Assembly: GCA_938083135.1 (NCBI GenBank) | Contig: CALLKY010000030.1 | Location: 8,432-72,431, forward strand | Source of the DNA: an uncultured Alphaproteobacteria bacterium | GTDB lineage: Bacteria > Pseudomonadota > Alphaproteobacteria > Bin95 | DNA: 64,000 bases | Reading direction: 5' to 3' | Shown here: positions 985 to 12,325 of the stretch, piece after piece | How the letters are laid out: each line of letters starts with the position of its first letter | Position numbering within the stretch: the stretch's first letter is position 1 | Position numbers and translations under genes: made by a program | The notes under the pieces: model-generated | Seen by the model: the letters and a program-made list of their open reading frames with translations, nothing else | The model's database searches: none | Told to the model about the DNA's origin: nothing

Positions 985-1731
985 CTAGCCGTAGGACTGC
1001 ACCAAGCTGCCCGCCACCAATCGCCAGCCATCCACCAGAACGAAGAATATCAGCTTGAATGGCAGTGATATCATCACTGGCGGCAGCATCATCATACCCA
1101 TCGACATCAAGACTGATGCGACCAGCATGTCGATGACCAGAAATGGGATGAACAATAAGAAGCCAATTTCAAAGGCACGGCGGAGTTCGCTGATCATGAA
1201 TGCCGGTGCCAGGGCGCGAAGCGGCGTTGCTTCGGGCGTTTCCGGGGTTTCTGCGTTAGACAGATCAAGGAAAAGACGGAGGTCTTCATCCCGCACATGG
1301 CGCAGCATGAACGTTCGAATTGGGCCGATTGCTTTACCGAGCGCTTCTTCTTCCGTGATCTGCTCTTCCAGGAGTGGCTGGACGGCTTCGTCGTAGATTT
1401 TCTCGAATGTCGGGGCCATCACGAAGCCTGTCAGGAACAGCGCTAAGCTAACAAGCACGATATTTGGTGGCGCCTGTTGCGCACCAAGCGCGCTGCGTAG
1501 GAACGACAGCACGACGACGATCCGCGTGAACGATGTCGCCATTACAAGGATCGACGGTGCCAAGCTCAACACCGTCATCAATGCTACGAGCTGTAAGATC
1601 CGCGCAGTTGATGAAGGCCCATCGCCGCCAATGTCAATCGATATGGATTGGGCAAGGGCAGGGGATGCTACTAAGTATGCTGCTGCAGCAAAGGAGAAAA
1701 ATGCGAGGTTTATGCGCCAAGACTTAGACAT
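985..1731 (-). CDS. fliP: Flagellar biosynthesis protein FliP (type III export apparatus).
   Basis: The ORF contains the FliP hallmark signal peptide (MSKSWRINLAFFSFAAAAYLVASPALAQ) and the conserved TM core (LVALMTVLSLAPSILVMATSFTRIVVVLSFLR...GMMMLPP). The start was chosen at the internal Met (1731); the longer 1941 ORF is an upstream extension. Confidence 0.9.
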   Translation of the reverse strand: MSKSWRINLAFFSFAAAAYLVASPALAQSISIDIGGDGPSSTARILQLVALMTVLSLAPSILVMATSFTRIVVVLSFLRSALGAQQAPPNIVLVSLALFLTGFVMAPTFEKIYDEAVQPLLEEQITEEEALGKAIGPIRTFMLRHVRDEDLRLFLDLSNAETPETPEATPLRALAPAFMISELRRAFEIGFLLFIPFLVIDMLVASVLMSMGMMMLPPVMISLPFKLIFFVLVDGWRLVAGSLVQSYG

Positions 1732-2017
1732 CAGCAGACGCCTCAATTGCGTTAGGGGATGCGTCGCGGGCTTCGACCAAAACATCGGTGCCACCGCCGA
1801 CGAGCAGCACATATTCGCGGCCATCAACCTGCGCCAGGACCAGCCGGCGCTTTGCATCCACCCCAACGGCTTCAACAATGGACAAACGGCGAGGCCGGCC
1901 AAGCTTTCCGCTGGCCAAGCCCCGGTACCGTCGCGCTGCATATGACAGCAGCACGATCAGCCCAACGACAAATGCCAGGGCACCAAAAAAGCGGAATGCG
2001 GCTTCGACCTCAAACAT
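1724..2017 (-). CDS. fliO: FliO-like small membrane protein (flagellar export apparatus).
   Basis: A 97-aa protein with a single TM segment (ALAFVVGLIVLLSYAA) lies immediately upstream of fliP and overlaps it by 8 nt, which is the typical fliO-fliP arrangement. Confidence 0.6.
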   Translation of the reverse strand: MFEVEAAFRFFGALAFVVGLIVLLSYAARRYRGLASGKLGRPRRLSIVEAVGVDAKRRLVLAQVDGREYVLLVGGGTDVLVEARDASPNAIEASADV

Positions 2018-2025
2018 GCATCAGC

Positions 2026-2349
2026 TCAGGCATTGGGATGACGGGCGTAGGCTGATACAGCCCGGCGCTGTGTTGAGAGGCTGCCGAGAAGATCTGCGGT
2101 CGCGTTCCGCTCCTTCTTTATGCGGGCATGGAGTGCGTTTAGGTCTGCGACCAAATTCAGCAGTGCTGGACGCGTCTCGCGCGCGGCATTCGCGTCTAGA
2201 CTGGTGGCAGCAGCAGCGGCCAGGTCAACCTCTGTTTCAACGGCACGAATATCTGGCGCCTGATCTTGATCGAGGGCTTTGTCGGCACGTTTGATTGCAC
2301 CTCGTGCGGCTTCCAGGCGGTCGAGCACGTTAGCATTATTGTTTTTCAT
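2026..2349 (-). CDS. Hypothetical flagellar-locus protein (107 aa, helical, acidic).
   Basis: The gene has a strong RBS (GAAGGAGCAAGCA-ATG) and sits between fliO and the FlhB-C-like gene. I recognise no family. Confidence 0.4.
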   Translation of the reverse strand: MKNNNANVLDRLEAARGAIKRADKALDQDQAPDIRAVETEVDLAAAAATSLDANAARETRPALLNLVADLNALHARIKKERNATADLLGSLSTQRRAVSAYARHPNA

Positions 2350-2665
2350 TGCTTGCTCCTTCGCTTTGCACCGCTGGCGTTGCGCCTTTGGCTGCAGCGT
2401 TCATGCGGTAGAGCCGGTCGAGTAGGGCGGCGGTCAGGGCGGTGGCCGCTTCAGGTGCATCGGAGGCTGGGTCCAGGGCCGATAGGACTTCTGCCAGATC
2501 TGCATCACGGCGAACGCGCACGCCCTTTGCAGCCGCAACTGCCAGAATGGCGTCTGCAAATGCACCCCGGCCCGACGCAAGCGACGATGAACCGCCAAGG
2601 GCGACGGCGCGCGGCATTTTGGGTCGGCCGTGTTTTGATGAATGGGCAGCGCCAGATGGCGGCAT
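2336..2665 (-). CDS. FlhB C-terminal-domain-like small protein (EscU/YscU/FlhB-C family).
   Basis: The motif ...PRAVALGGSSSLASGRGAFADAILAVAAAKGVRVRRDADLAEVLSAL... matches the pattern of the stand-alone FlhB-C proteins found in alphaproteobacterial flagellar loci. The start is uncertain (Met at 2665 or 2617). Confidence 0.5.
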   Translation of the reverse strand: MPPSGAAHSSKHGRPKMPRAVALGGSSSLASGRGAFADAILAVAAAKGVRVRRDADLAEVLSALDPASDAPEAATALTAALLDRLYRMNAAAKGATPAVQSEGASNEKQ

Positions 2666-2711
2666 AATCCGTCTACTCTATGGTTTCACACCATTAGAGA
2701 ATGCGGCTCGT

Positions 2712-2730
2712 ATGGTTAACGTAACGTTGC
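2712..2730 (-). promoter_or_regulatory. Candidate CtrA-type half-site (TTAACCAT on the minus strand), upstream of the FlhB-C-like/fliOP genes.
   Basis: The reverse complement of 2711-2730 reads GCAACGTTACGTTAACCATA. This contains the TTAACCAT 8-mer known as the CtrA half-site in Caulobacter-type cell-cycle promoters. Confidence 0.3.
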
Positions 2731-2783
2731 AATATATTGGAAAGCCTAGTTTTCCAGGCGGTCCAGCTTAAAGAACTATTGCT

Positions 2784-3020
2784 CTAGTCTTTATTTTCAG
2801 GAGGTTTTGGTGCGGTAAGCTCTTCAAGAACGGAAGCAGCGTCGGCGGCCTCACGGTTTTCTGCCTGAACACGTTCAAAGATTTCGCGGCGGAGTACGGA
2901 CGCGTTTGACGGAAAATTGAAGCCAAGGCGGACGGAGCGTCCACTGACTTCAATGACTGTTACTTCGATGTCGCTATTAATAACGACGCTCTCACCGATT
3001 TTTCGGGTGAGATACAGCAT
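2784..3020 (-). CDS. csrA: Carbon storage regulator CsrA homolog.
   Basis: MLYLTRKIGESVVINSDIEVTVIEVSGRSVRLGFNFPSNASVLRREIFERVQAE aligns residue-by-residue with the CsrA/RsmA consensus ([48 protein letters not shown]). Confidence 0.8.
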   Translation of the reverse strand: MLYLTRKIGESVVINSDIEVTVIEVSGRSVRLGFNFPSNASVLRREIFERVQAENREAADAASVLEELTAPKPPENKD

Positions 3021-3116
3021 GACTGGCTTGGTCCCCGCCTAATGTAGTCCAGAAATATCGGATGCCCCGCCCCCACTGGACTCTATCCGACCGAGACTTC
3101 TGTAAGGATAGCGTTG

Positions 3117-3132
3117 TTAACGTAGGATTTAC
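3117..3132 (+). promoter_or_regulatory. Candidate CtrA-like box (TTAA-N7-TTTAC) about 55 nt upstream of flgB.
   Basis: The sequence TTAACGTAGGATTTAC is a near match to TTAA-N7-TTAAC. It lies in the divergent csrA/flgB intergenic region and is followed by an AT-rich stretch. Confidence 0.3.
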
Positions 3133-3186
3133 AGTCATTTCTGTAAATTTGATCTGAAATCGAAATAATTTTTAGGCGCATGCCCT

Positions 3187-3594
3187 ATGGAGCCATCCAG
3201 TCTTTCTGTTTTTAAGCAGCTCGGTTCGAAGATGCGTTGGCTCACGCAACGCCAAAGTGTGCTTGCGCAAAACATAGCGAACGTGGACACGCCTGGTTTC
3301 AAACCGAAAGACCTTAAGCCTATGGGGTTTCAAAAATCCTTAGCGCTGGCGGCAGTTCAGACGGGCGGGGAAGCGAACCACATTAAGATTCACTCCACTG
3401 CTGGCTCAGGTAGTGGACGGGCACGGTCTGAATTTGGACGTGGGGATCAAGATACGGCGCTTTCTGGCAATGCGGTCGATATGGAAATTGAACTTAAGAA
3501 GTCTGCCGATACAGCACTTCAGTATCAAACCATGGCCAATCTCTATCAAAAGCATATGGGGCTTTTGCGAATGGCGATTAAGGGGGATGGCTAA
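3187..3594 (+). CDS. flgB: Flagellar basal-body rod protein FlgB.
   Basis: The N-terminal rod motif QNIANVDTPGFK and the C-terminal LQYQ...ANLYQK are both present. Confidence 0.9.
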   Translation: MEPSSLSVFKQLGSKMRWLTQRQSVLAQNIANVDTPGFKPKDLKPMGFQKSLALAAVQTGGEANHIKIHSTAGSGSGRARSEFGRGDQDTALSGNAVDMEIELKKSADTALQYQTMANLYQKHMGLLRMAIKGDG

Positions 3595-3640
3595 TCATGC
3601 TGGCCCCAATTGCCCCAAGTCCCATTAAAAGGAATGTGAC

Positions 3641-4051
3641 ATGAGCTTTAATGCAGCGATGGACGCCGCCGTATCTGGCCTTCGGGCGCAGACCAAACGC
3701 TTGCGGGTCGTCGCCGAAAATATGGCGAATGCAGACACCACGGCCAGCACGCCCGGTGGTGAGCCTTACCGGCGGAAAACCATTTCGTTCAAAAGCGAGA
3801 TCGACCGGGCGACTGGGGGCGAACAGGTGGCCGTGCGCAAAATTGGCCGCGACCCGTCTGCGTTTAGCCGTGTCTTTGAACCAGGCCATCCAGGTGCCGA
3901 TGCGGATGGCTATCTGCTGCGCCCGAATGTTTCAACGATTGTTGAAATCACGGACATGCAGGAAGCCCAGCGTAGTTATGAGGCCAACCTGACGATGCTG
4001 ACCGGTGCGCGCAGCATGTTGCAGCGCACGATCGATCTGCTGCGCTCTTAG
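3641..4051 (+). CDS. flgC: Flagellar basal-body rod protein FlgC.
   Basis: The protein starts MSFNAAMDAAVSGLRAQ and contains NMANADTT and EEAQRSYEANL. There is an RBS (AAAGGAA) upstream. Confidence 0.9.
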   Translation: MSFNAAMDAAVSGLRAQTKRLRVVAENMANADTTASTPGGEPYRRKTISFKSEIDRATGGEQVAVRKIGRDPSAFSRVFEPGHPGADADGYLLRPNVSTIVEITDMQEAQRSYEANLTMLTGARSMLQRTIDLLRS

Positions 4052-4074
4052 CAGGTATTTAGGGAGTTACCGCG

Positions 4075-4392
4075 ATGACAGCCATTGCATCAAACGCCGT
4101 TGCTGCCGCTTACACTGCTGGCCAATCTGCCGGCACAGGCGGTGCTGCAAAGATGAAAACATCCAGCGAGGGCGGGGATTCCTTCGCCAGCATGCTGGAA
4201 GAAGCGGCCAGTCAGGCCGTGGACACGATGCGCAATTCTGAGACGACCTCCATGAAGGCCGTCGCGGGCGAGGCTGATTTGCTGGAAGTGGTCGCCTCCA
4301 TGAATGATGCTGAATCGACGCTCCGCACCGTTGTCGCGGTCCGCGACAAGGTCGTGCAGAGCTATCAGGAAATTCTCTGCATGCCGATTTGA
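4075..4392 (+). CDS. fliE: Flagellar hook-basal body protein FliE.
   Basis: A 105-aa protein with a conserved C-terminal block (ESTLRTVVAVRDKVVQSYQEIL), sitting in the flgB-flgC-fliE order. Confidence 0.75.
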   Translation: MTAIASNAVAAAYTAGQSAGTGGAAKMKTSSEGGDSFASMLEEAASQAVDTMRNSETTSMKAVAGEADLLEVVASMNDAESTLRTVVAVRDKVVQSYQEILCMPI

Positions 4393-4404
4393 TCGGGCAG
4401 CAGT

Positions 4405-4671
4405 ATGAATGAATCTGAAGTCATTGAGATCAGCCGTGAAGGCGTGATGGCGATTATCGTCGCTGGCGGGCCGCTCATGTTGGTAGCACTGGGCGTCGGC
4501 CTGACGATCTCCTTGATCCAGGCCCTGACGCAAGTTCAGGAGATGACGCTTGCCTTCGTGCCAAAGATTCTGGCTATCTTTGGCGCTTCCATTCTGATGG
4601 CACCTTTCATCATCGCTACATTGAATACGCTAACTGTCTCCATGTTCGACCGTATCGCAGCTTTAAGTTAG
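4405..4671 (+). CDS. fliQ: Flagellar export protein FliQ.
   Basis: An 88-aa two-TM protein (GPLMLVALGVGLTISLIQALTQVQEMTLAFVPKI), typical of FliQ. Confidence 0.85.
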   Translation: MNESEVIEISREGVMAIIVAGGPLMLVALGVGLTISLIQALTQVQEMTLAFVPKILAIFGASILMAPFIIATLNTLTVSMFDRIAALS

Positions 4672-4675
4672 CGGC

Positions 4676-5440
4676 ATGACGCTGACTGACGCGGTTACGG
4701 GAGAGCTGGCAGCGTACGCCATTGTCTTCTGCCGCCTTGGCGCTGCGATGATGTTCCTGCCGGGGTTTGGTGATTCTGCCGTAAACACCCGGTCCCGCTT
4801 GGTAATGGCGCTCGCGATCACATTCGCCATGGGTGGTGTATTTGGCGATGGATCCCATCTGACAGGCGGGTTCTGGCCTGCCATATCGGTGGTGGTATCT
4901 GAAATTATCATCGGGCTATTCATTGGCCTTGCGGGTCGGCTGACGATCACGGCACTGCAGTCCGCAGGCTCCATCATCGCGGCGCAAATCAGTCTTTCAA
5001 ACGCGCTATCGACCGATCTGGTCTCGGCCCAACAGGGCTCACTGCCTGCCAACTTTCTGACCATTGTTGGCGTGATGCTGATATTCGCGACGGACCTGCA
5101 TCATCTGCTGCTGGCAGGCGTCGCGCGTAGCTATGAAACTTTCCCAGTCGCCAGTGCGCCACAGATGGATGGGTTTGCGGAAGCGGTGGCGACCATTGTT
5201 TCTGAGGGCTTTAGCATCGCGTTGGCGCTTTCGGCACCCTTCATATTGGTTGGAATTACGGTATCTCTTGGCATGGGTTTGTTGGCTCGGTTGATGCCGC
5301 AAGTCCAAGTATTCTTCATCATCATGCCTTTGCAGATTACAGTTGGTCTCGGCCTCCTGGCGTTGACGTTATCCGCTGGGATGCAGTGGTATCTGCATAG
5401 GTTTATCGAGCTGCAATCCTACGCCACAGGGGGCGGATAA
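4676..5440 (+). CDS. fliR: Flagellar export protein FliR.
   Basis: A 254-aa polytopic membrane protein immediately after fliQ. FliR-like composition. Confidence 0.85.
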   Translation: MTLTDAVTGELAAYAIVFCRLGAAMMFLPGFGDSAVNTRSRLVMALAITFAMGGVFGDGSHLTGGFWPAISVVVSEIIIGLFIGLAGRLTITALQSAGSIIAAQISLSNALSTDLVSAQQGSLPANFLTIVGVMLIFATDLHHLLLAGVARSYETFPVASAPQMDGFAEAVATIVSEGFSIALALSAPFILVGITVSLGMGLLARLMPQVQVFFIIMPLQITVGLGLLALTLSAGMQWYLHRFIELQSYATGGG

Positions 5441-5445
5441 GCCCC

Positions 5446-6513
5446 ATGTCGGATGAGGATGACAGTGAGAAGACAGAAGAACCCAGTCATAAAAAGCTGG
5501 AGGACGCCCGTGAAAAAGGGCAAGTGCCGTCCTCCAAGGAAGTTAATCACTGGGTCATATTCCTAGCGGCGACGATCTTCCTGCTGGGGCTGGCACCGCC
5601 GCTGGCGCAAGAAGTATCGCGCAGCATGGTCGCCTTTCTGGAACGCCCGCATGAATTCTCCGTCACGGCGCAAACGATGCCAATCATCGTCGGGGACGCC
5701 TTGAGTTCGCTGGGCATGGCGGTTTTGCCAACTGCGGCGCTGTTCCTCGTCGCAGCGGCCGCCGCGGGGCTGCTGCAAACGGGGCTTCTCTTCTCCACGG
5801 AGAGCATTACACCGAAGCTGGAGAAGATTTCGCCGATTGCAGGCGTTAAGCGAATGTTCTCCGTCAAATCTCTAGCGGAATTCGGGAAGGGCATTCTGAA
5901 GCTTATTATCGTTGGTGCCATTGCGGCTGGCGTAATCATGCCCGAAATGGCGGCGATTGAGACGGTCTCTGGGATGGGGGCGGCGGACCTGATCAACAAG
6001 CTCGCCTCTGTCTCTGCTCGATTGGTCATGGCGGTGCTGGCGATCATGACGCTGATTGCGTCTGTCGATTTTATCTACCAGCGCTGGGAGCACATGAAGA
6101 AGCTCCGCATGTCACGCCAGGATATGAAGGAAGAATACAAGCAGACCGAAGGCGATCCATTGATCAAGCAGCGCCTTCGCCAAATCCGGATGGACCGTGC
6201 TCGCAAGCGCATGATGGCGGAAGTGCCGAAGGCTGACGTCGTTATTACGAACCCAACTCACTTCGCCGTAGCACTTAAATACGACACGATGGTCATGAAC
6301 GCGCCGATGGTGCTGGCGAAGGGTGTGGATAAGGCCGCATTCCGTATTCGTGAGGTCGCGGAAGAACACGGCATTCCAATTATTGAGAACCCGCCGCTGG
6401 CGCGGGGGCTTTATGCTAATGTCGGCTTTGAAGAAGAAATCGACGAAGAGCATTACCGGGCGGTCGCTGAAGTGATCAACTATGTCTGGAAGCTCCGGGG
6501 CCGCAAGGGGTAG
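5446..6513 (+). CDS. flhB: Flagellar export switch protein FlhB.
   Basis: The ORF has the NPTH autocleavage motif (ITNPTHFAVAL) and the conserved ...RMSRQDMKEEYKQTEGDP... block. Confidence 0.9.
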   Translation: MSDEDDSEKTEEPSHKKLEDAREKGQVPSSKEVNHWVIFLAATIFLLGLAPPLAQEVSRSMVAFLERPHEFSVTAQTMPIIVGDALSSLGMAVLPTAALFLVAAAAAGLLQTGLLFSTESITPKLEKISPIAGVKRMFSVKSLAEFGKGILKLIIVGAIAAGVIMPEMAAIETVSGMGAADLINKLASVSARLVMAVLAIMTLIASVDFIYQRWEHMKKLRMSRQDMKEEYKQTEGDPLIKQRLRQIRMDRARKRMMAEVPKADVVITNPTHFAVALKYDTMVMNAPMVLAKGVDKAAFRIREVAEEHGIPIIENPPLARGLYANVGFEEEIDEEHYRAVAEVINYVWKLRGRKG

Positions 6514-6517
6514 GCTG

Positions 6518-8323
6518 ATGGCGCGATTGCATTGGATCATTCTGGGCGCTGCATGTGTGTGCCTTGCAGTAGGGGTGGCGCTTGGCGACTCCATGGGCAT
6601 TCGTGCTTTGGCGGCGGTTGTAGGCGTAACGGCCTTGATTTGGGTTGGTCTAAAGCAGGCGCAACCGCCGGAGCAGGTCGTGGAACTGCAACCTGAACAG
6701 CCTGCGCCCATTGCCGAGCCAGCTGAACCGGTAGCACCAATAGAATCGTTACTGCCTGAACCGGCCCCGCCTCCGCCCGTACCGGCAGGTTTTCTAATTG
6801 GTGAGGGCGATCACGCGCTTGAAGTGCGTTCCGGCGCGCTGATGCGGTTCATGGCATCGGGTCCATTGAACATTATCCTCCTGAATGACCACGGATTGGT
6901 TTTGGCCATCAGCCAGGCTTTCAGCACGCTGTCCGGTGTGACGGATACGCCAGTTGGAAGTATGGCGGCGGCGCTATTTGAAGATGACGCTAAAGTAGAT
7001 TTCAGCAAAGCGCTCTCGGAATTCCTTGCCGGCGGCGACCAACCGGAACGGCCTGTCATTGCCAGATTGGCAACAGGACCGAAAGAAACATGCGCCGTAT
7101 TCTTTTCAGAATTGCAGGCAGAGCCGCGCATTATTGCGCTCAGCCTGATGAACGTCACGCAGGAAAAGAAGCTTGAGGCGCAGTTCGCGCAGTCGCAGAA
7201 AATGCTGGCTGTTGGTCAGCTTGCTGGCGGCGTCGCTCATGACTTCAACAATCTGTTGACAGCCATCATTGGCCATTGTGACCTGCTGATGCTGCGCCAT
7301 AGCCCCAGTGATGAATCCTTCGCGGACATCAATCAGGTTAAGCAGAATGCGAATCGTGCCGCTAACCTTGTCCGGCAATTGCTGGCCTTTTCCCGCCAGC
7401 AGACCCTGCAGCCCCAGGTGATGGATGTCGGCGAGGTGCTGGCTGACTTAGATAATCTGCTGCACCGTTTGCTTGGTGCCAGCATAGACCTGAATATTGA
7501 GCACGGGCGGGAATTGTCCCTGGTCAAAGTGGACCGGGTGCAGCTTGAGCAGGTGCTGATCAATCTCGCCGTGAACGCCAGGGACGCTATGGATGGGCGA
7601 GGCGCTCTTAAAATTGTGACTAGGATGGCGACGGTGGGCGACACGACCGGCGGTCCGCTTGAGCCGATGCCAGCGGGTAACTACGTCCAGATTGATGTAG
7701 CAGACCGCGGTGCGGGTATCGCGAAGGAGCACTTAAAGCGCATATTTGAGCCGTTCTTTACAACAAAAGATGTCGGCAAAGGCACTGGGCTTGGTCTCTC
7801 TACGGTGTATGGCATCGTCAAGCAGACGGGCGGATTTATCTTCGTTGATAGTGAAATTGGTACCGGTACGACGTTCTCGCTCTACCTGCCGCCTCATGCA
7901 GCGGAGGTGGTTGATAATCGCAGCCCAGTCGCCGCCAAGCCGCTGGACCTGACAGGGGTTGGCACCATTATGCTTGTCGAGGATGAGGACCCGGTGCGCT
8001 TATTTGGTGCGCGGGCGCTGCGCGGTAAGGGGTATCGGGTCATTGAAGCGACTACGGGCGGTGCCGCGCTCAAGCTCTTCCAGGAAGGGGAGGCGGACGA
8101 TATTGACCTTCTCGTCACTGATATCGTTATGCCGGAACTAGACGGCCCGAGTCTCATCGCAGAAGCACGGCGGTTTCGTCCAAGTCTCCCTGTAATTTGT
8201 GTGTCCGGCTATGCTGAATCCGAATTTCGGGACAAGCTGGATGGCCTGGACGATGTTCATTTTCTGCCTAAACCATTTACATTGCAGGAACTTGCAGGCG
8301 CAGTTAAGCAAGTCATTCCGTGA
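6518..8323 (+). CDS. cckA: Hybrid sensor histidine kinase with C-terminal receiver, CckA-like.
   Basis: Two N-terminal TM helices are followed by a Pro-rich linker and a PAS-like region. The H-box is LAGGVAHDFNNLLTAIIGH (CckA-type). HATPase motifs (NLAVNARDAM; DRGAGI; GTGLGLS) are present, and a receiver domain follows (IMLVEDE...LVTDIVMPELDG). Start chosen at ATG 6518 just after the flhB stop, with RBS AAGGGG. The symbol is assigned from the motifs and is not proven. Confidence 0.65.
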   Translation: MARLHWIILGAACVCLAVGVALGDSMGIRALAAVVGVTALIWVGLKQAQPPEQVVELQPEQPAPIAEPAEPVAPIESLLPEPAPPPPVPAGFLIGEGDHALEVRSGALMRFMASGPLNIILLNDHGLVLAISQAFSTLSGVTDTPVGSMAAALFEDDAKVDFSKALSEFLAGGDQPERPVIARLATGPKETCAVFFSELQAEPRIIALSLMNVTQEKKLEAQFAQSQKMLAVGQLAGGVAHDFNNLLTAIIGHCDLLMLRHSPSDESFADINQVKQNANRAANLVRQLLAFSRQQTLQPQVMDVGEVLADLDNLLHRLLGASIDLNIEHGRELSLVKVDRVQLEQVLINLAVNARDAMDGRGALKIVTRMATVGDTTGGPLEPMPAGNYVQIDVADRGAGIAKEHLKRIFEPFFTTKDVGKGTGLGLSTVYGIVKQTGGFIFVDSEIGTGTTFSLYLPPHAAEVVDNRSPVAAKPLDLTGVGTIMLVEDEDPVRLFGARALRGKGYRVIEATTGGAALKLFQEGEADDIDLLVTDIVMPELDGPSLIAEARRFRPSLPVICVSGYAESEFRDKLDGLDDVHFLPKPFTLQELAGAVKQVIP

Positions 8324-8392
8324 ACATTTGATGTTCTCGAAATTAATTCGGAACATAGCTTGACCAGATGGAACATTTGCGGCACATTGTTC
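8322..8392 (+). promoter_or_regulatory. Candidate LexA (SOS) operator cluster in the recA promoter region.
   Basis: The region contains a perfect palindrome GAACATttgATGTTC (8322-8336, GAAC-N7-GTTC) that overlaps the kinase stop codon. It also contains GAACATAGCTTGACC (8351-8365, a one-mismatch direct repeat GAAC-N7-GACC) and GAACAT-N9-ATTGTTC (8371-8392). Confidence 0.45.
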
Positions 8393-8466
8393 TCATCGCA
8401 AACACCCCTTTCGCCCACAGGCTAAAATTGCACGGCCTAGGCAGCTATGGGAATATGGAGAACAAC

Positions 8467-9543
8467 ATGGCGCAACCCTCCCTCAAGGTCGTAGAGAACT
8501 CCACAATGGATAAGCAAAAGGCGCTTGAAGCCGCACTCGGTCAGATTGAGCGAGCGTTTGGCAAAGGCTCTATTATGAAGCTTGGCGAGCAAAGCTCGCT
8601 TGAGATTGAAGCCGTATCATCTGGCTCGCTTGGGTTGGATATTGCCCTGGGCGTTGGCGGGTTGCCGCGGGGGCGCATCATCGAGATTTATGGCCCCGAA
8701 AGCTCCGGTAAAACGACGCTGGCCCTGCATGCTGTCGCCGAAGCACAGAGGCTTGGCGGTGTCGCAGCCTTTGTCGATGCGGAACATGCGCTTGATCCAG
8801 CCTATGCCAAAAAGCTTGGCGTTAACTTGGATGAGCTGCTGATCTCGCAACCAGATACGGGCGAGCAGGCACTTGAGATTGTAGATACGCTGGTCCGCAG
8901 TCAGGCGCTTGATATTCTCGTGATTGATAGCGTCGCGGCATTGACGCCACGGGCTGAGATCGAAGGCGAAATGGGTGATTCCCTGCCGGGCTTGCAAGCG
9001 CGCCTAATGAGCCAGGCATTGCGTAAGCTGACCGCATCAATCTCCAAGAGCCGGACGATGGTTATCTTCATTAACCAGATCCGCATGAAGATCGGCGTGA
9101 TGTTTGGCAGCCCAGAAACCACAACGGGCGGCAATGCGCTGAAGTTTTATGCGACGGTGCGCCTTGATATTCGCCGGATTGGTCAGATCAAAGACAAGGA
9201 CGAAGTCGTGGGCAACCACACCCGCGTCCGTGTTGTGAAGAATAAAGTGGCACCGCCGTTTAAAGTCGTTGAATTCGACATCATGTACGGCAAGGGCATT
9301 TCCAAGACGGGTGAGTTGATCGATCTTGGCGTTAAGGCGGACATCGTTGAGAAGTCGGGGTCCTGGTTCTCATTTGATGGTGAGCGCTTGGGGCAGGGCC
9401 GTGAGAATTCAAAAACATTCCTTGCGCAGAACCCGGATGTCGCTGCCACGATTGAGCATCGCGTTCGTGAGAATGCAGGCCTTGTCGCTGAATTGATGAT
9501 GACAGGCGAGGGCGATGATGAAGATGATGACGAGGTAGTCTAG
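8467..9543 (+). CDS. recA: Recombinase RecA.
   Basis: The protein begins [26 protein letters not shown], contains the Walker A motif GPESSGKTT, and has an acidic C-terminal tail. Start chosen at the Met with a GGAG RBS; ATG at 8455 is an alternative. Confidence 0.95.
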
Positions 9544-9670: not shown

Positions 9671-12325
9671 ATGGCGACGGCCAACGAAATCCGCAGGGCG
9701 TTTTTGGACTATTTCGCGAAGAACGGGCACGAGATCGTCTCGTCGAGCCCGCTTGTACCGTTGAATGACCCCACTTTGCTGTTCACGAACGCAGGGATGG
9801 TGCAGTTCAAGAACGTATTTACAGGCGTTGAGCAGCGGGATTACAGCCGCGCCGTCACCTCCCAGAAATGCGTGCGCGCGGGCGGCAAGCACAATGATCT
9901 TGAGAATGTCGGCTACACGGCACGCCACCACACCTTCTTTGAGATGCTCGGCAATTTCTCATTTGGCGATTATTTCAAAGACCAGGCGATCGAGCTCGCA
10001 TGGAATTTGATCACTAAGGAATATGGCCTTCCGGCAGAGAAGCTGCTGGTTACGGTCTATTCTGAGGATGAAGACGCGGCCACACTCTGGAAGAAGATCG
10101 CGGGCCTGACCGATGACAAGATCATCCGTATCCCGACCAGCGATAATTTCTGGTCCATGGGCGATACTGGCCCTTGCGGCCCGTGCTCCGAAATTTTCTT
10201 CGATCATGGCGACAAAATTCCAGGTGGCCCGCCAGGCTCACCAGATGAGGATGGCGACAGGTTCATTGAGATTTGGAACCTCGTCTTCATGCAATATGAG
10301 CAGGTCTCGAAAGAGGAGCGCATTGGCCTGCCGCGCCCTTCCATCGACACAGGGATGGGCTTGGAACGCCTGACGGCCGTGCTGCAGGGCAAGCACGATA
10401 ACTATGACATCGACCTGATGCGTGCGCTGATTGAGGATGTTGCGTCCAAAACCGGTGTTGATCCAGATGGCCCGCAATATGCCTCGCACCGTGTTATCGC
10501 TGATCACATCAGGGCCGCATCCTTCTTGATCACAGATGGCGTTCTGCCTTCGAACGAAGGGCGCGGATATGTGCTGCGTCGGATCATGCGGCGCGGTATG
10601 CGCCATGCGCATATGCTCGGTGCAGAGGACCCGCTGCTCCACAAAATCGCCCCCACTTTGGCGCGTGAGATGGGGGATGATTATCCTGAGTTACGGACGG
10701 CCTCTACGTTGATTGAAGAAACACTGAGGCTGGAAGAAGAGCGTTTTAAGATAACGTTAGACCGTGGCCTTAAGCTTTTAGATGATGCAATAGCACCACT
10801 TGGCGAAGGCGAAGAGCTTGAAGGTGAAACGGCCTTTAAGCTGTATGACACATTCGGGTTCCCGCTCGATCTGACCCAGGATATTCTGCGCGGGCAGGGG
10901 CGAACCGTTGAGATTGACGGGTTCAATGCGGCCATGGAGCGGCAACGCGAAGCTGCTCGCAGCGCCTGGGTTGGCAGTGGGGATGCTGGCGATACCGCAC
11001 TCTGGTTCAAGCTGCGTGAACGCCTCGGCCCGACCGAATTTTTAGGCTATGCCCAAGAAACGGCAGAGGGCGTTGCAATGGCGCTCGTCTCAGAAGGCGC
11101 TGAGGTCACAGAAATTGCTGCGGGTCAGACAGGCTTCGTGCTTCTCAACCAAACGCCATTCTATGCTGAATCCGGTGGCCAGGTTGGCGATATGGGCCGT
11201 ATGACCGGCCCTGACGGCGTCACAGCCAAAGTGCTTGATGTGCAAAAGCAGGTTGGCGCGCTCTGGGCGCACCGGGTTGAGGTTGAATCCGGTGCAATCA
11301 CTGTCGATATGCCACTGGAACTTGCCGTAGACGGCGAGCGACGCGGCCATATCCGGCGCAATCACTCTGCCACGCATTTGCTCCATGCAGCACTCCGTGA
11401 CGCTTTGGGTGATCATGTTGCGCAGAAAGGCTCACTGGTGTCGCCAGACCGGTTGCGCTTCGACATATCGCATCCCAAGGGCATTTCTGATGATGAGATG
11501 GCGGCGGTCGAGCATGCCGTCAACCAACGCATCCGGATGAACAGTGCGGTGAACACCCGCGTTATGCCAACGGACCAAGCCATTGAAGCCGGTGCAATGG
11601 CGCTTTTCGGTGAGAAATATGGCGATGAAGTCCGTGTCGTCACTATGGGCGGTGAGGCAGCACCTGGCGCTGGCAAAGATTGGTCAGTTGAACTTTGTGG
11701 CGGGATCCATGTGGATAGGACGGGCGATATCGGTGGATTTGTCGTTATGTCTGAAGGCGCTGTTGCTGCAGACGTTCGCCGGATTGAAGCTGTGACAGGG
11801 CAAGCCGCCGAAAGCTTCGTCGCAGAGCGTCGCCAGCTTTTGAGTGAGATTGCGGGCGTGCTGAAATCGACCCCTGAAGAAGCGCCCGCCCGGATCGCGC
11901 AAATCATCAAAGAGCGCCGTAAGTTTGAGCGAGAAGCGGCTGACCTTAGGCGTGAGCTTGCCACGGGCGGCGGTAGCGCAGAAACGCCTGAAGCCAAAGA
12001 CGTTGGCGGCGTGAAATTCATCGGAAAGGCGCTGAGCGGCGTGCCGGCACGGGAACTTAAATCCATGGCGGATGCGCTGAAGGGGCAAGTTGGCTCCGGC
12101 GTCGTCGCCGTTGTGGCTGAAGATCAGGGCAAGGCGTCCCTGGTGGTTGCTGTAACGCCAGACCTTAAGGGCAAGGTCGATGCCGTGGCACTTGTGCGTG
12201 CGGGCTCTGCCGCAGTTGGCGGTAAGGGCGGCGGCGGTCGCCCGGATATGGCGCAGGCGGGCGGGCCTGATGGCGACAAAATCAACGAAGGCCTTGCCGC
12301 AATTGAAGCTGCGCTGGCCGGATAG
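9671..12325 (+). CDS. alaS: Alanine--tRNA ligase.
   Basis: An 884-aa protein with the class II AlaRS N-terminus ([20 protein letters not shown]...[10 protein letters not shown]) and the editing-domain/C-Ala region. Confidence 0.95.

Follow-up and report, generated by a model that had tools for sequence, protein, structure and literature searches.

Proteins of the CsrA/RsmA family are intertwined homodimers that bind GGA motifs in RNA, and the systems in which they have been described offer several models against which a new csrA locus can be placed. In Bacillus subtilis, CsrA, FliW and flagellin reportedly form a partner switch, and csrA lies there in the late flgK-flgL-fliW-csrA-hag block (the same block, up to csrA, was seen in Priestia). 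In the gammaproteobacterial Csr/Rsm systems the BarA-UvrY two-component system drives the GGA-repeat sRNA sponges CsrB/C or RsmX/Y/Z, and in the model Alphaproteobacteria (Caulobacter, rhizobia and Rhodobacter) the translation of flagellin is described as controlled by FlbT and FlaF and not by CsrA. The CsrA-FliW-flagellin partner switch is also found in Campylobacter jejuni, and in Epsilonproteobacteria fliW is not adjacent to csrA (Dugar et al. 2016, PMC4894983). An initial annotation of the DNA studied here had taken csrA to be paired with fliW in the lineages where the system is known; the lack of a fliW beside csrA at our locus stands, but physical pairing as a rule does not, given the epsilonproteobacterial arrangement (PMC4894983). 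Full-text literature searches found no work on a CsrA encoded in a flagellar locus of Alphaproteobacteria.

Here we analysed a stretch of 64 kb of alphaproteobacterial DNA, hereafter the window, in which a clear CsrA/RsmA-family gene had been recognised lying divergently from flgB and on the same strand as an FlhB-C-like gene and fliOP. Both the family assignment and the arrangement are borne out by the profile searches and the gene map given below. The open reading frame at 2784..3020 on the minus strand encodes, from an ATG start, a protein of 78 amino acids that begins with MLYLTRKIGESVVIN and consists of a core (residues 1-52) and about 25 further residues that extend it at the C-terminus. 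This product matched the Pfam CsrA family PF02599 over profile positions 1-52 of 53 (E = 3.8e-20; 72 bits with a cut-off of 27) and scored above the cut-offs of the two NCBIfam csrA equivalog models, TIGR00202 (80.7 bits; cut-off 70.1) and NF002469 (75.3 bits; cut-off 73), and all nine of the PDB sequences that it matched were CsrA/RsmA-family chains. It is a genuine CsrA and an ordinary member of the family, and public annotation pipelines already name it so. Published mutagenesis in E. coli and Pseudomonas places residues L2, L4, R6, R44, E46 and I47 (E. coli numbering; strands beta-1 and beta-5) in contact with RNA, and L2, L4, R6, R44 and E46 were invariant in our alignment of the alphaproteobacterial homologues with E. 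coli CsrA, RsmE and the CsrAs of Priestia and Paenibacillus. Judged from this alignment, the RNA-binding residues of the window CsrA are intact.

Thirty columns were invariant among the 16 aligned alphaproteobacterial homologues, which are 56-79% identical to the window CsrA. The protein shares with the gammaproteobacterial Csr/Rsm regulators its family and its RNA-binding residues, and its core is 44-52% identical to E. coli CsrA and Pseudomonas RsmE. An alphaproteobacterial csrA of the window type was absent from the plasmid database PLSDB, where the best match (48%) came from Pseudomonas. Over residues 1-62 the window CsrA is 48% identical to this plasmid-borne Pseudomonas CsrA/RsmA and 40-44% identical to Firmicute CsrA, so that its core is as near to the gammaproteobacterial proteins as to the Firmicute ones. 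This nearness speaks for an alternative in which the protein would be a general post-transcriptional regulator of carbon, stress or lifestyle genes, its flagellar location being an evolutionary relic and its titration being due, as in Gammaproteobacteria, to GGA-rich sRNAs encoded elsewhere. We consider this alternative quite unlikely, on the basis of the evidence from synteny, from the C-terminal extension and from the search for RNAs that is presented with each of these subjects.

The flagellar part of the window spans about 6.5 kb and holds exclusively early genes, namely those of the export apparatus and the rod. Downstream of csrA and on the same minus strand, after a spacer of 118 nt (2666..2783), lies a gene for a protein of 109 amino acids (p109; 2336..2665) that is FlhB C-terminal-domain-like, of the YlqH/flhB_rel type; its match to TIGR00789 (E = 5.2e-6) falls below the cut-off of that model, the FlhB C-terminal pattern is clear in its orthologues from 63 loci, and a hidden Markov model built from these orthologues also matches the C-terminus of true FlhB proteins. 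It is followed by a gene for a helical protein of 107 amino acids (p107; 2026..2349), which orthologue matches tentatively identify as FliT-like, that is, as belonging to a flagellar export chaperone family: 5 of the 24 p107 orthologues matched Pfam FliT (PF05400), the best at E = 3.2e-5, and the window copy alone reached E = 0.09. The series ends with fliO (1724..2017; PF04347, E = 2.2e-5; TIGR03500, E = 1e-11) and fliP (985..1731; PF00813, E = 3.2e-83), both on the minus strand. The fliP product has 248 amino acids according to the gene calls in public assemblies, the 318-codon reading frame found in the window being over-extended. A search for a terminator-like site in the csrA-p109 spacer found none, and csrA is therefore probably co-transcribed with the downstream genes, heading an operon that ends in fliP. 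The RNA fold of positions 2650-2800 (minus strand), which covers the spacer, was more stable than those of shuffled sequences (z = -2.63), and the spacer RNA can form a hairpin GCCUGG-AAAA-CUAGGC with a GGA at the edge of the loop.

On the other side of csrA the divergent operon flgB-flgC-fliE-fliQ-fliR-flhB occupies 3187..6513 on the plus strand (identified with Pfam, and flhB with TIGR00328), flgB (3187-3594) being its first gene. It is followed on the same strand by a gene for a CckA-like hybrid histidine kinase (6518..8323), whose best NCBIfam match was the CckA model NF046020 (E = 2.8e-168; 561 bits, where the equivalog cut-off is 1000), and then by recA (8368-9543) and alaS (9671-12325). 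In contigs carrying an identical CsrA the cluster reaches about 10 kb past the left end of the window, with genes for a protein of 1015 amino acids, cheZ, cheY, two small coiled-coil proteins, fliM, fliL, flgF, flgG, flgA and flgH, after which the genes are non-flagellar. Positions 1-780 of the window (plus strand) fall inside the 1015-residue protein, which has no Pfam domain and weak hints of TPR repeats only (L003, 12241-15288), and a protein of about 1000-1180 amino acids likewise adjoins fliP, with cheZ and cheY after it, in the relatives L020, L036 and L089. Late flagellar genes (flagellin, flgK/L and fliD/S) were found neither in the window nor in the roughly 10 kb beyond its left end.

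The presence of csrA in a flagellar locus, which the initial annotation had singled out, holds well beyond this organism and is not special to it. Public metagenome assemblies yielded the identical CsrA protein from 74 index blocks, with the same neighbours in all ten of the places shown, and a scan with one genome per species detected the subfamily in at least 415 species genomes. We compared the loci of the best 80 of these at least 415 species genomes, a set of metagenome-assembled genomes and isolates that included Kiloniellales/Pelagibius, Fodinicurvata, Thalassospira, Algihabitans, Ferruginivarius, Tistlia, Rhodovibrio, Inquilinaceae and Dongiaceae. In 78 of the 80 loci flgB was divergent from csrA and no more than 600 nt away (median 166 nt), a pattern opposite to that of a csrA broadly conserved outside flagellar loci. 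The gene order flhB-fliR-fliQ-fliE-flgC-flgB<>csrA-p109-p107-fliO-fliP was found in most complete loci, and the order flhB-kinase-recA-alaS was retained in most of the 80. Hence a large clade of Rhodospirillales-like Alphaproteobacteria has retained csrA as a constant member of its early flagellar cluster, at a position that is conserved across genera. The same Rhodospirillales-type csrA cluster was present in two assemblies labelled as a Gemmatimonas sp. (L088) and as a Paracoccaceae (L031) metagenome-assembled genome, with CsrA identities of 80% and 64%, respectively; these labels are probably binning or labelling errors and not a sign of wider taxonomic spread.

Some loci depart from the common order. 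In three Algihabitans loci (L043, L056 and L058; 10300-17100) unrelated DNA lies between csrA and the FliT-like gene and encodes a large outer-membrane-receptor-like protein as well as regulator-like reading frames (assigned by eye), and in L025, L031 and L078 (10240-12700) the insert at the same place codes for a protein that resembles FAD-type oxidoreductases. In none of these six insert-bearing loci was the FlhB-C-like gene detected.

Two further relatives bear on whether the regulator serves the flagellum alone. One of them (L080, 8800-10900) keeps an intact csrA beside which only remnants of FlgB (102 amino acids) and of the kinase (120 amino acids) are left, with dksA next to them, and in the other (L053, 7700-9100) csrA is also intact and a deletion has produced a reading frame of 75 codons that fuses the C-terminus of FlgC to that of FlhB. 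The survival of csrA despite the deletion of its flagellar neighbours could reflect recent decay of these loci or a role of CsrA beyond the flagellum, at which it hints because the gene is intact in both, and it is in this respect that they favour the general-regulator alternative. Against that alternative stand the synteny with flgB and the common CtrA-box-like region described below, which are kept in 77-78 of the 80 species. The protein is locked into the flagellar cluster, unlike the Csr/Rsm regulators, and the kinase in its neighbourhood is CckA-like and not BarA-like.

The 166 nt that separate csrA from flgB (3021..3186) form a conserved divergent control region. Its CtrA-box-like motif occupies 3117-3131 (TTAACGTAGGATTTA), with a C next to it at 3132. 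A TTAA-N7-TTAA element with at most one mismatch was present in 77 of the 78 orthologous intergenic regions, compared with 2.1 +/- 1.4 in shuffled sequences. The clade consensus of the motif, cTTGTTAAgAAnnnGTAAA, reads TTTA-N7-TTAAC towards flgB and differs by one base from the Caulobacter CtrA consensus, which is TTAA-N7-TTAAC. The motif lies at a median of about 73 nt from the start of flgB and about 80 nt from that of csrA, and so roughly midway between the two genes. Because the motif recurs in 77 of 78 regions and a CckA-like kinase is encoded next to the cluster, csrA would appear to be under early CtrA-dependent control and to be transcribed together with the early flagellar genes that depend on CtrA.

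Conservation of the protein does not end with the RNA-binding core. Residues Q52, E54, N55, R56, A58 and A59 were invariant among the 16 alphaproteobacterial homologues and form in the extension the motif E54-N55-R56-x-A58-A59, with N55 in 16 of 16. FliW reportedly binds the C-terminal region of CsrA, and N55 of CsrA is said to be needed for antagonism by FliW. Asn55 is also found in the CsrAs of Priestia and Paenibacillus, in both of which fliW lies immediately upstream of csrA, and in the Geobacillus CsrA that was crystallised with FliW (5DMB chain D), the alignment with which extends to residue 62. In contrast, E. coli CsrA has K55 and its alignment with the window CsrA ends at residue 57, and the gammaproteobacterial CsrAs of the alignment have no such extension, which again tells against a general regulator of the Csr/Rsm kind. 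An extension with an invariant E54-N55-R56 resembles those of FliW-partnered CsrAs, and it would favour a protein over an sRNA as antagonist, since it is conserved beyond the core and shares N55 with the CsrAs that have FliW as partner.

The search for an RNA sponge in the window pointed in the same direction. None of the Rfam families, including the Csr/Rsm sRNAs, reached its gathering threshold in the 64 kb, and no intergenic region was dense in GGA, the sole 150-nt windows with nine GGA motifs falling inside open reading frames; these negatives cover about 2% of the genome. An sRNA sponge within the window was on these grounds rejected, a further reason to prefer a protein antagonist to an sRNA and a further point of difference from the Csr/Rsm systems, weighing against the general regulator to the extent of the 64 kb covered. 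We also looked for local targets of CsrA and for autoregulation. Across 77-80 loci there was no enrichment in GGA in the leaders of csrA (z = 0.0) and flgB (z = -0.3) or in the csrA-p109 spacer (z = -0.4, for the 120 nt downstream of csrA in 77 loci), and both ideas were discarded.

Taking the control region, the extension and the gene neighbourhood together, the explanation that we put forward, and to which we give about an even chance, is that of a flagellum-coupled CsrA that represses the translation of late flagellar mRNAs and is countered by a protein antagonist. Under this explanation csrA would be switched on through CtrA together with the early flagellar genes, and the CsrA dimer would bind leaders with GGA motifs in late flagellar mRNAs, that of flagellin being the most probable, and keep these mRNAs from being translated before the export apparatus is ready. 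The block would then be lifted by a protein that takes hold of the conserved extension at the C-terminus of CsrA. The most economical candidate for this protein would be a FliW whose gene lies among the late genes in another part of the genome, as in Campylobacter, and its separation from csrA is plausible because of the precedent in Epsilonproteobacteria (PMC4894983). Against the explanation count the lack of a FliW in the 1.58 Mb that we searched, the make-up of a published table of CsrA-bearing genomes (Zere et al. 2015, see below), the lack of GGA enrichment in the local leaders and of flagellin in the window, and the intact csrA of L080 and L053, in which the adjacent flagellar genes are deleted.

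The search for FliW was carried out with hidden Markov models from five FliW proteins, either annotated or identified by tblastn, from Priestia, Paenibacillus, Clostridium, Curtobacterium and Pseudarthrobacter. When all 64 kb of the window were translated in six frames no reading frame matched, as the initial annotation had held, and nothing was found at E < 10 in the window and 89 further loci (1.58 Mb in total). The 80 relatives likewise had no FliW in the 10 kb around csrA. The neighbouring 107-residue protein had been judged to be unlike FliW, and the comparison of p107 with FliW by hhalign agrees (probability of 0.1%), ruling it out as a hidden FliW. Two proteins encoded next to fliM were also excluded as candidates, one of 140 amino acids that is a membrane-anchored coiled coil and one of 209 amino acids with sub-threshold matches to MgtE_N (E = 1e-4) and to the collar protein FlbB (E = 3e-4). 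In the same window and 89 loci there was no FlbT, using a profile from four Rhodospirillales proteins and the single Azospirillum FlbT sequence, and no FlaF in a single-sequence search with Azospirillum FlaF.

How much these negatives say about the genome depends on which genes were covered. The window and the 89 loci represent the early-gene cluster, with no flagellin and no flgK/L in any locus fetched around csrA, and the finding of no FliW in the window tells little of the whole genome because the late genes, among which fliW or flbT/flaF are usually located, lie elsewhere. The place of fliW is after flgK-flgL in Priestia and two actinobacterial replicons, and that of flaF-flbT is after flagellin in Azospirillum and Rhodovastum. 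The lack of a FliW within 10 kb of csrA is likewise weak evidence because Epsilonproteobacteria also keep fliW away from csrA. Wider searches gave Priestia-like proteins only, among the matches listed, for the FliW profile in a set of 5.8 billion proteins, and six Gram-positive records and no alphaproteobacterial one for FliW in a tblastn search of plasmids. A search with an FlbT profile (seeds from Azospirillum, Indioceanicola and Rhodovastum) gave almost only Azospirillaceae among the matches listed, none of them tied to a csrA-bearing genome. The table by Zere et al. (2015) of genomes with CsrA together with FliW or BarA/UvrY has, of the alphaproteobacterial genera that we looked for, Magnetococcus only, and is without Rhodospirillum, Magnetospirillum, Azospirillum and Thalassospira; this omission is compatible with a CsrA without FliW in the group or with mere absence of these genera from the data set.

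The replicons examined along the way gave two observations of their own. In the Curtobacterium and Pseudarthrobacter plasmids (L092, 1486-2461; L093, 1492-1875) the series flgK-flgL-fliW is followed by small hypothetical genes or by nothing, with no annotated csrA after fliW, which is the converse of the situation in the window. Replicon p1 of Azospirillum brasilense Sp7 (1.75 Mb; L096, 9979-12423) encodes a second FlbT, about 30% identical to the FlbT of the p4 cluster of strain MTCC4039 (L095), directly after a flagellin-like reading frame of 629 codons, and phmmer with the Azospirillum seed detected no FlaF at this locus.

The same negatives would be met if fliW had been lost and another protein had taken its place as antagonist of CsrA, be it the FliT-like chaperone or the FlhB-C-like protein, both encoded in the csrA operon, or the FlaF/FlbT/flagellin system. 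We regard this possibility as somewhat unlikely, although several observations favour it beyond the lack of FliW within 10 kb of csrA in the 80 relatives. The genes csrA, p109 and p107 co-occur in the clade, and all three are missing from the same site in two csrA-less replicons, a Methylobacterium aquaticum chromid (L099) and an Erythrobacter aureus plasmid (L100), that have otherwise the same flhB..flgB<>fliO-fliP layout, which suggests, as a lead from two comparators, that csrA, p109 and p107 travel as a module. (On the Erythrobacter aureus plasmid a 78-codon gene of the FliN family stands in their place.) Among the structure matches of the window CsrA was moreover the CsrA chain of PDB 5Z38, which we take to be the CesT-CsrA complex. 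The CesT-CsrA pair of enteropathogenic E. coli, in which a secretion chaperone also acts as the CsrA antagonist, offers a conceptual precedent for the FliT-like p107, but CesT belongs to the injectisome and is unrelated to p107, and the pairing proposed here is putative. According to a 2026 preprint, ancestral flagellar genes have on average been lost most often in Alphaproteobacteria. On the other side, the co-occurrence comparison comprises two csrA-less replicons only, the match of p107 to FliT is weak (seen in 5 of 24 orthologues, the best at E = 3e-5), and p107 and p109, being encoded directly upstream of fliO-fliP, may be mere accessories of the export apparatus. Carrying the argument further, one can conceive of a FliW-independent checkpoint in which the csrA/p109/p107 module would stand behind a CtrA-dependent promoter and the chaperone, or FlaF/FlbT/flagellin, would act as the partner-switching antagonist, a proposal that we consider rather improbable.

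The window locus shares with the CsrA-FliW systems of Bacillus, Campylobacter and Borrelia the placement of csrA among flagellar genes, an extension with Asn55 and the lack of any sign of an sRNA sponge in the window, and with Campylobacter in particular a csrA with no fliW adjacent to it. It differs from that of Bacillus in that csrA heads an early operon (fliO-fliP) behind a CtrA-box-like element, and not a place in the late block, and from the CsrA-FliW systems as a whole in that flagellin is unlinked, no FliW is found at the early-gene loci, and the FlhB-C-like and FliT-like flanking genes have no counterpart there. With the FlbT/FlaF system of Caulobacter and other Alphaproteobacteria it would have in common the task, namely to couple flagellin synthesis to assembly at the post-transcriptional level, within a hierarchy governed by CtrA; CsrA is, however, unrelated in sequence to FlbT and FlaF, neither of which is found at the csrA loci. 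Flagellum-associated CsrA is as a kind already known, and what the present analysis adds is the clade-wide synteny of csrA and the CtrA-box-like control region.

Because csrA heads an early operon behind a CtrA-box-like element in a subfamily that extends to at least 415 species, a large share of the Alphaproteobacteria, most of it marine, probably uses an ancient CsrA checkpoint, possibly alongside FlbT and FlaF or instead of them. If fliW is present in the csrA-bearing genomes, these would retain the ancestral CsrA-FliW system with an altered gene order, and if it is absent from them, they would offer a natural system for finding a new antagonist of CsrA. Should the FliW-independent reading be true, the cell-cycle hierarchy of CtrA would be linked to the translational control of late flagellar genes by CsrA.
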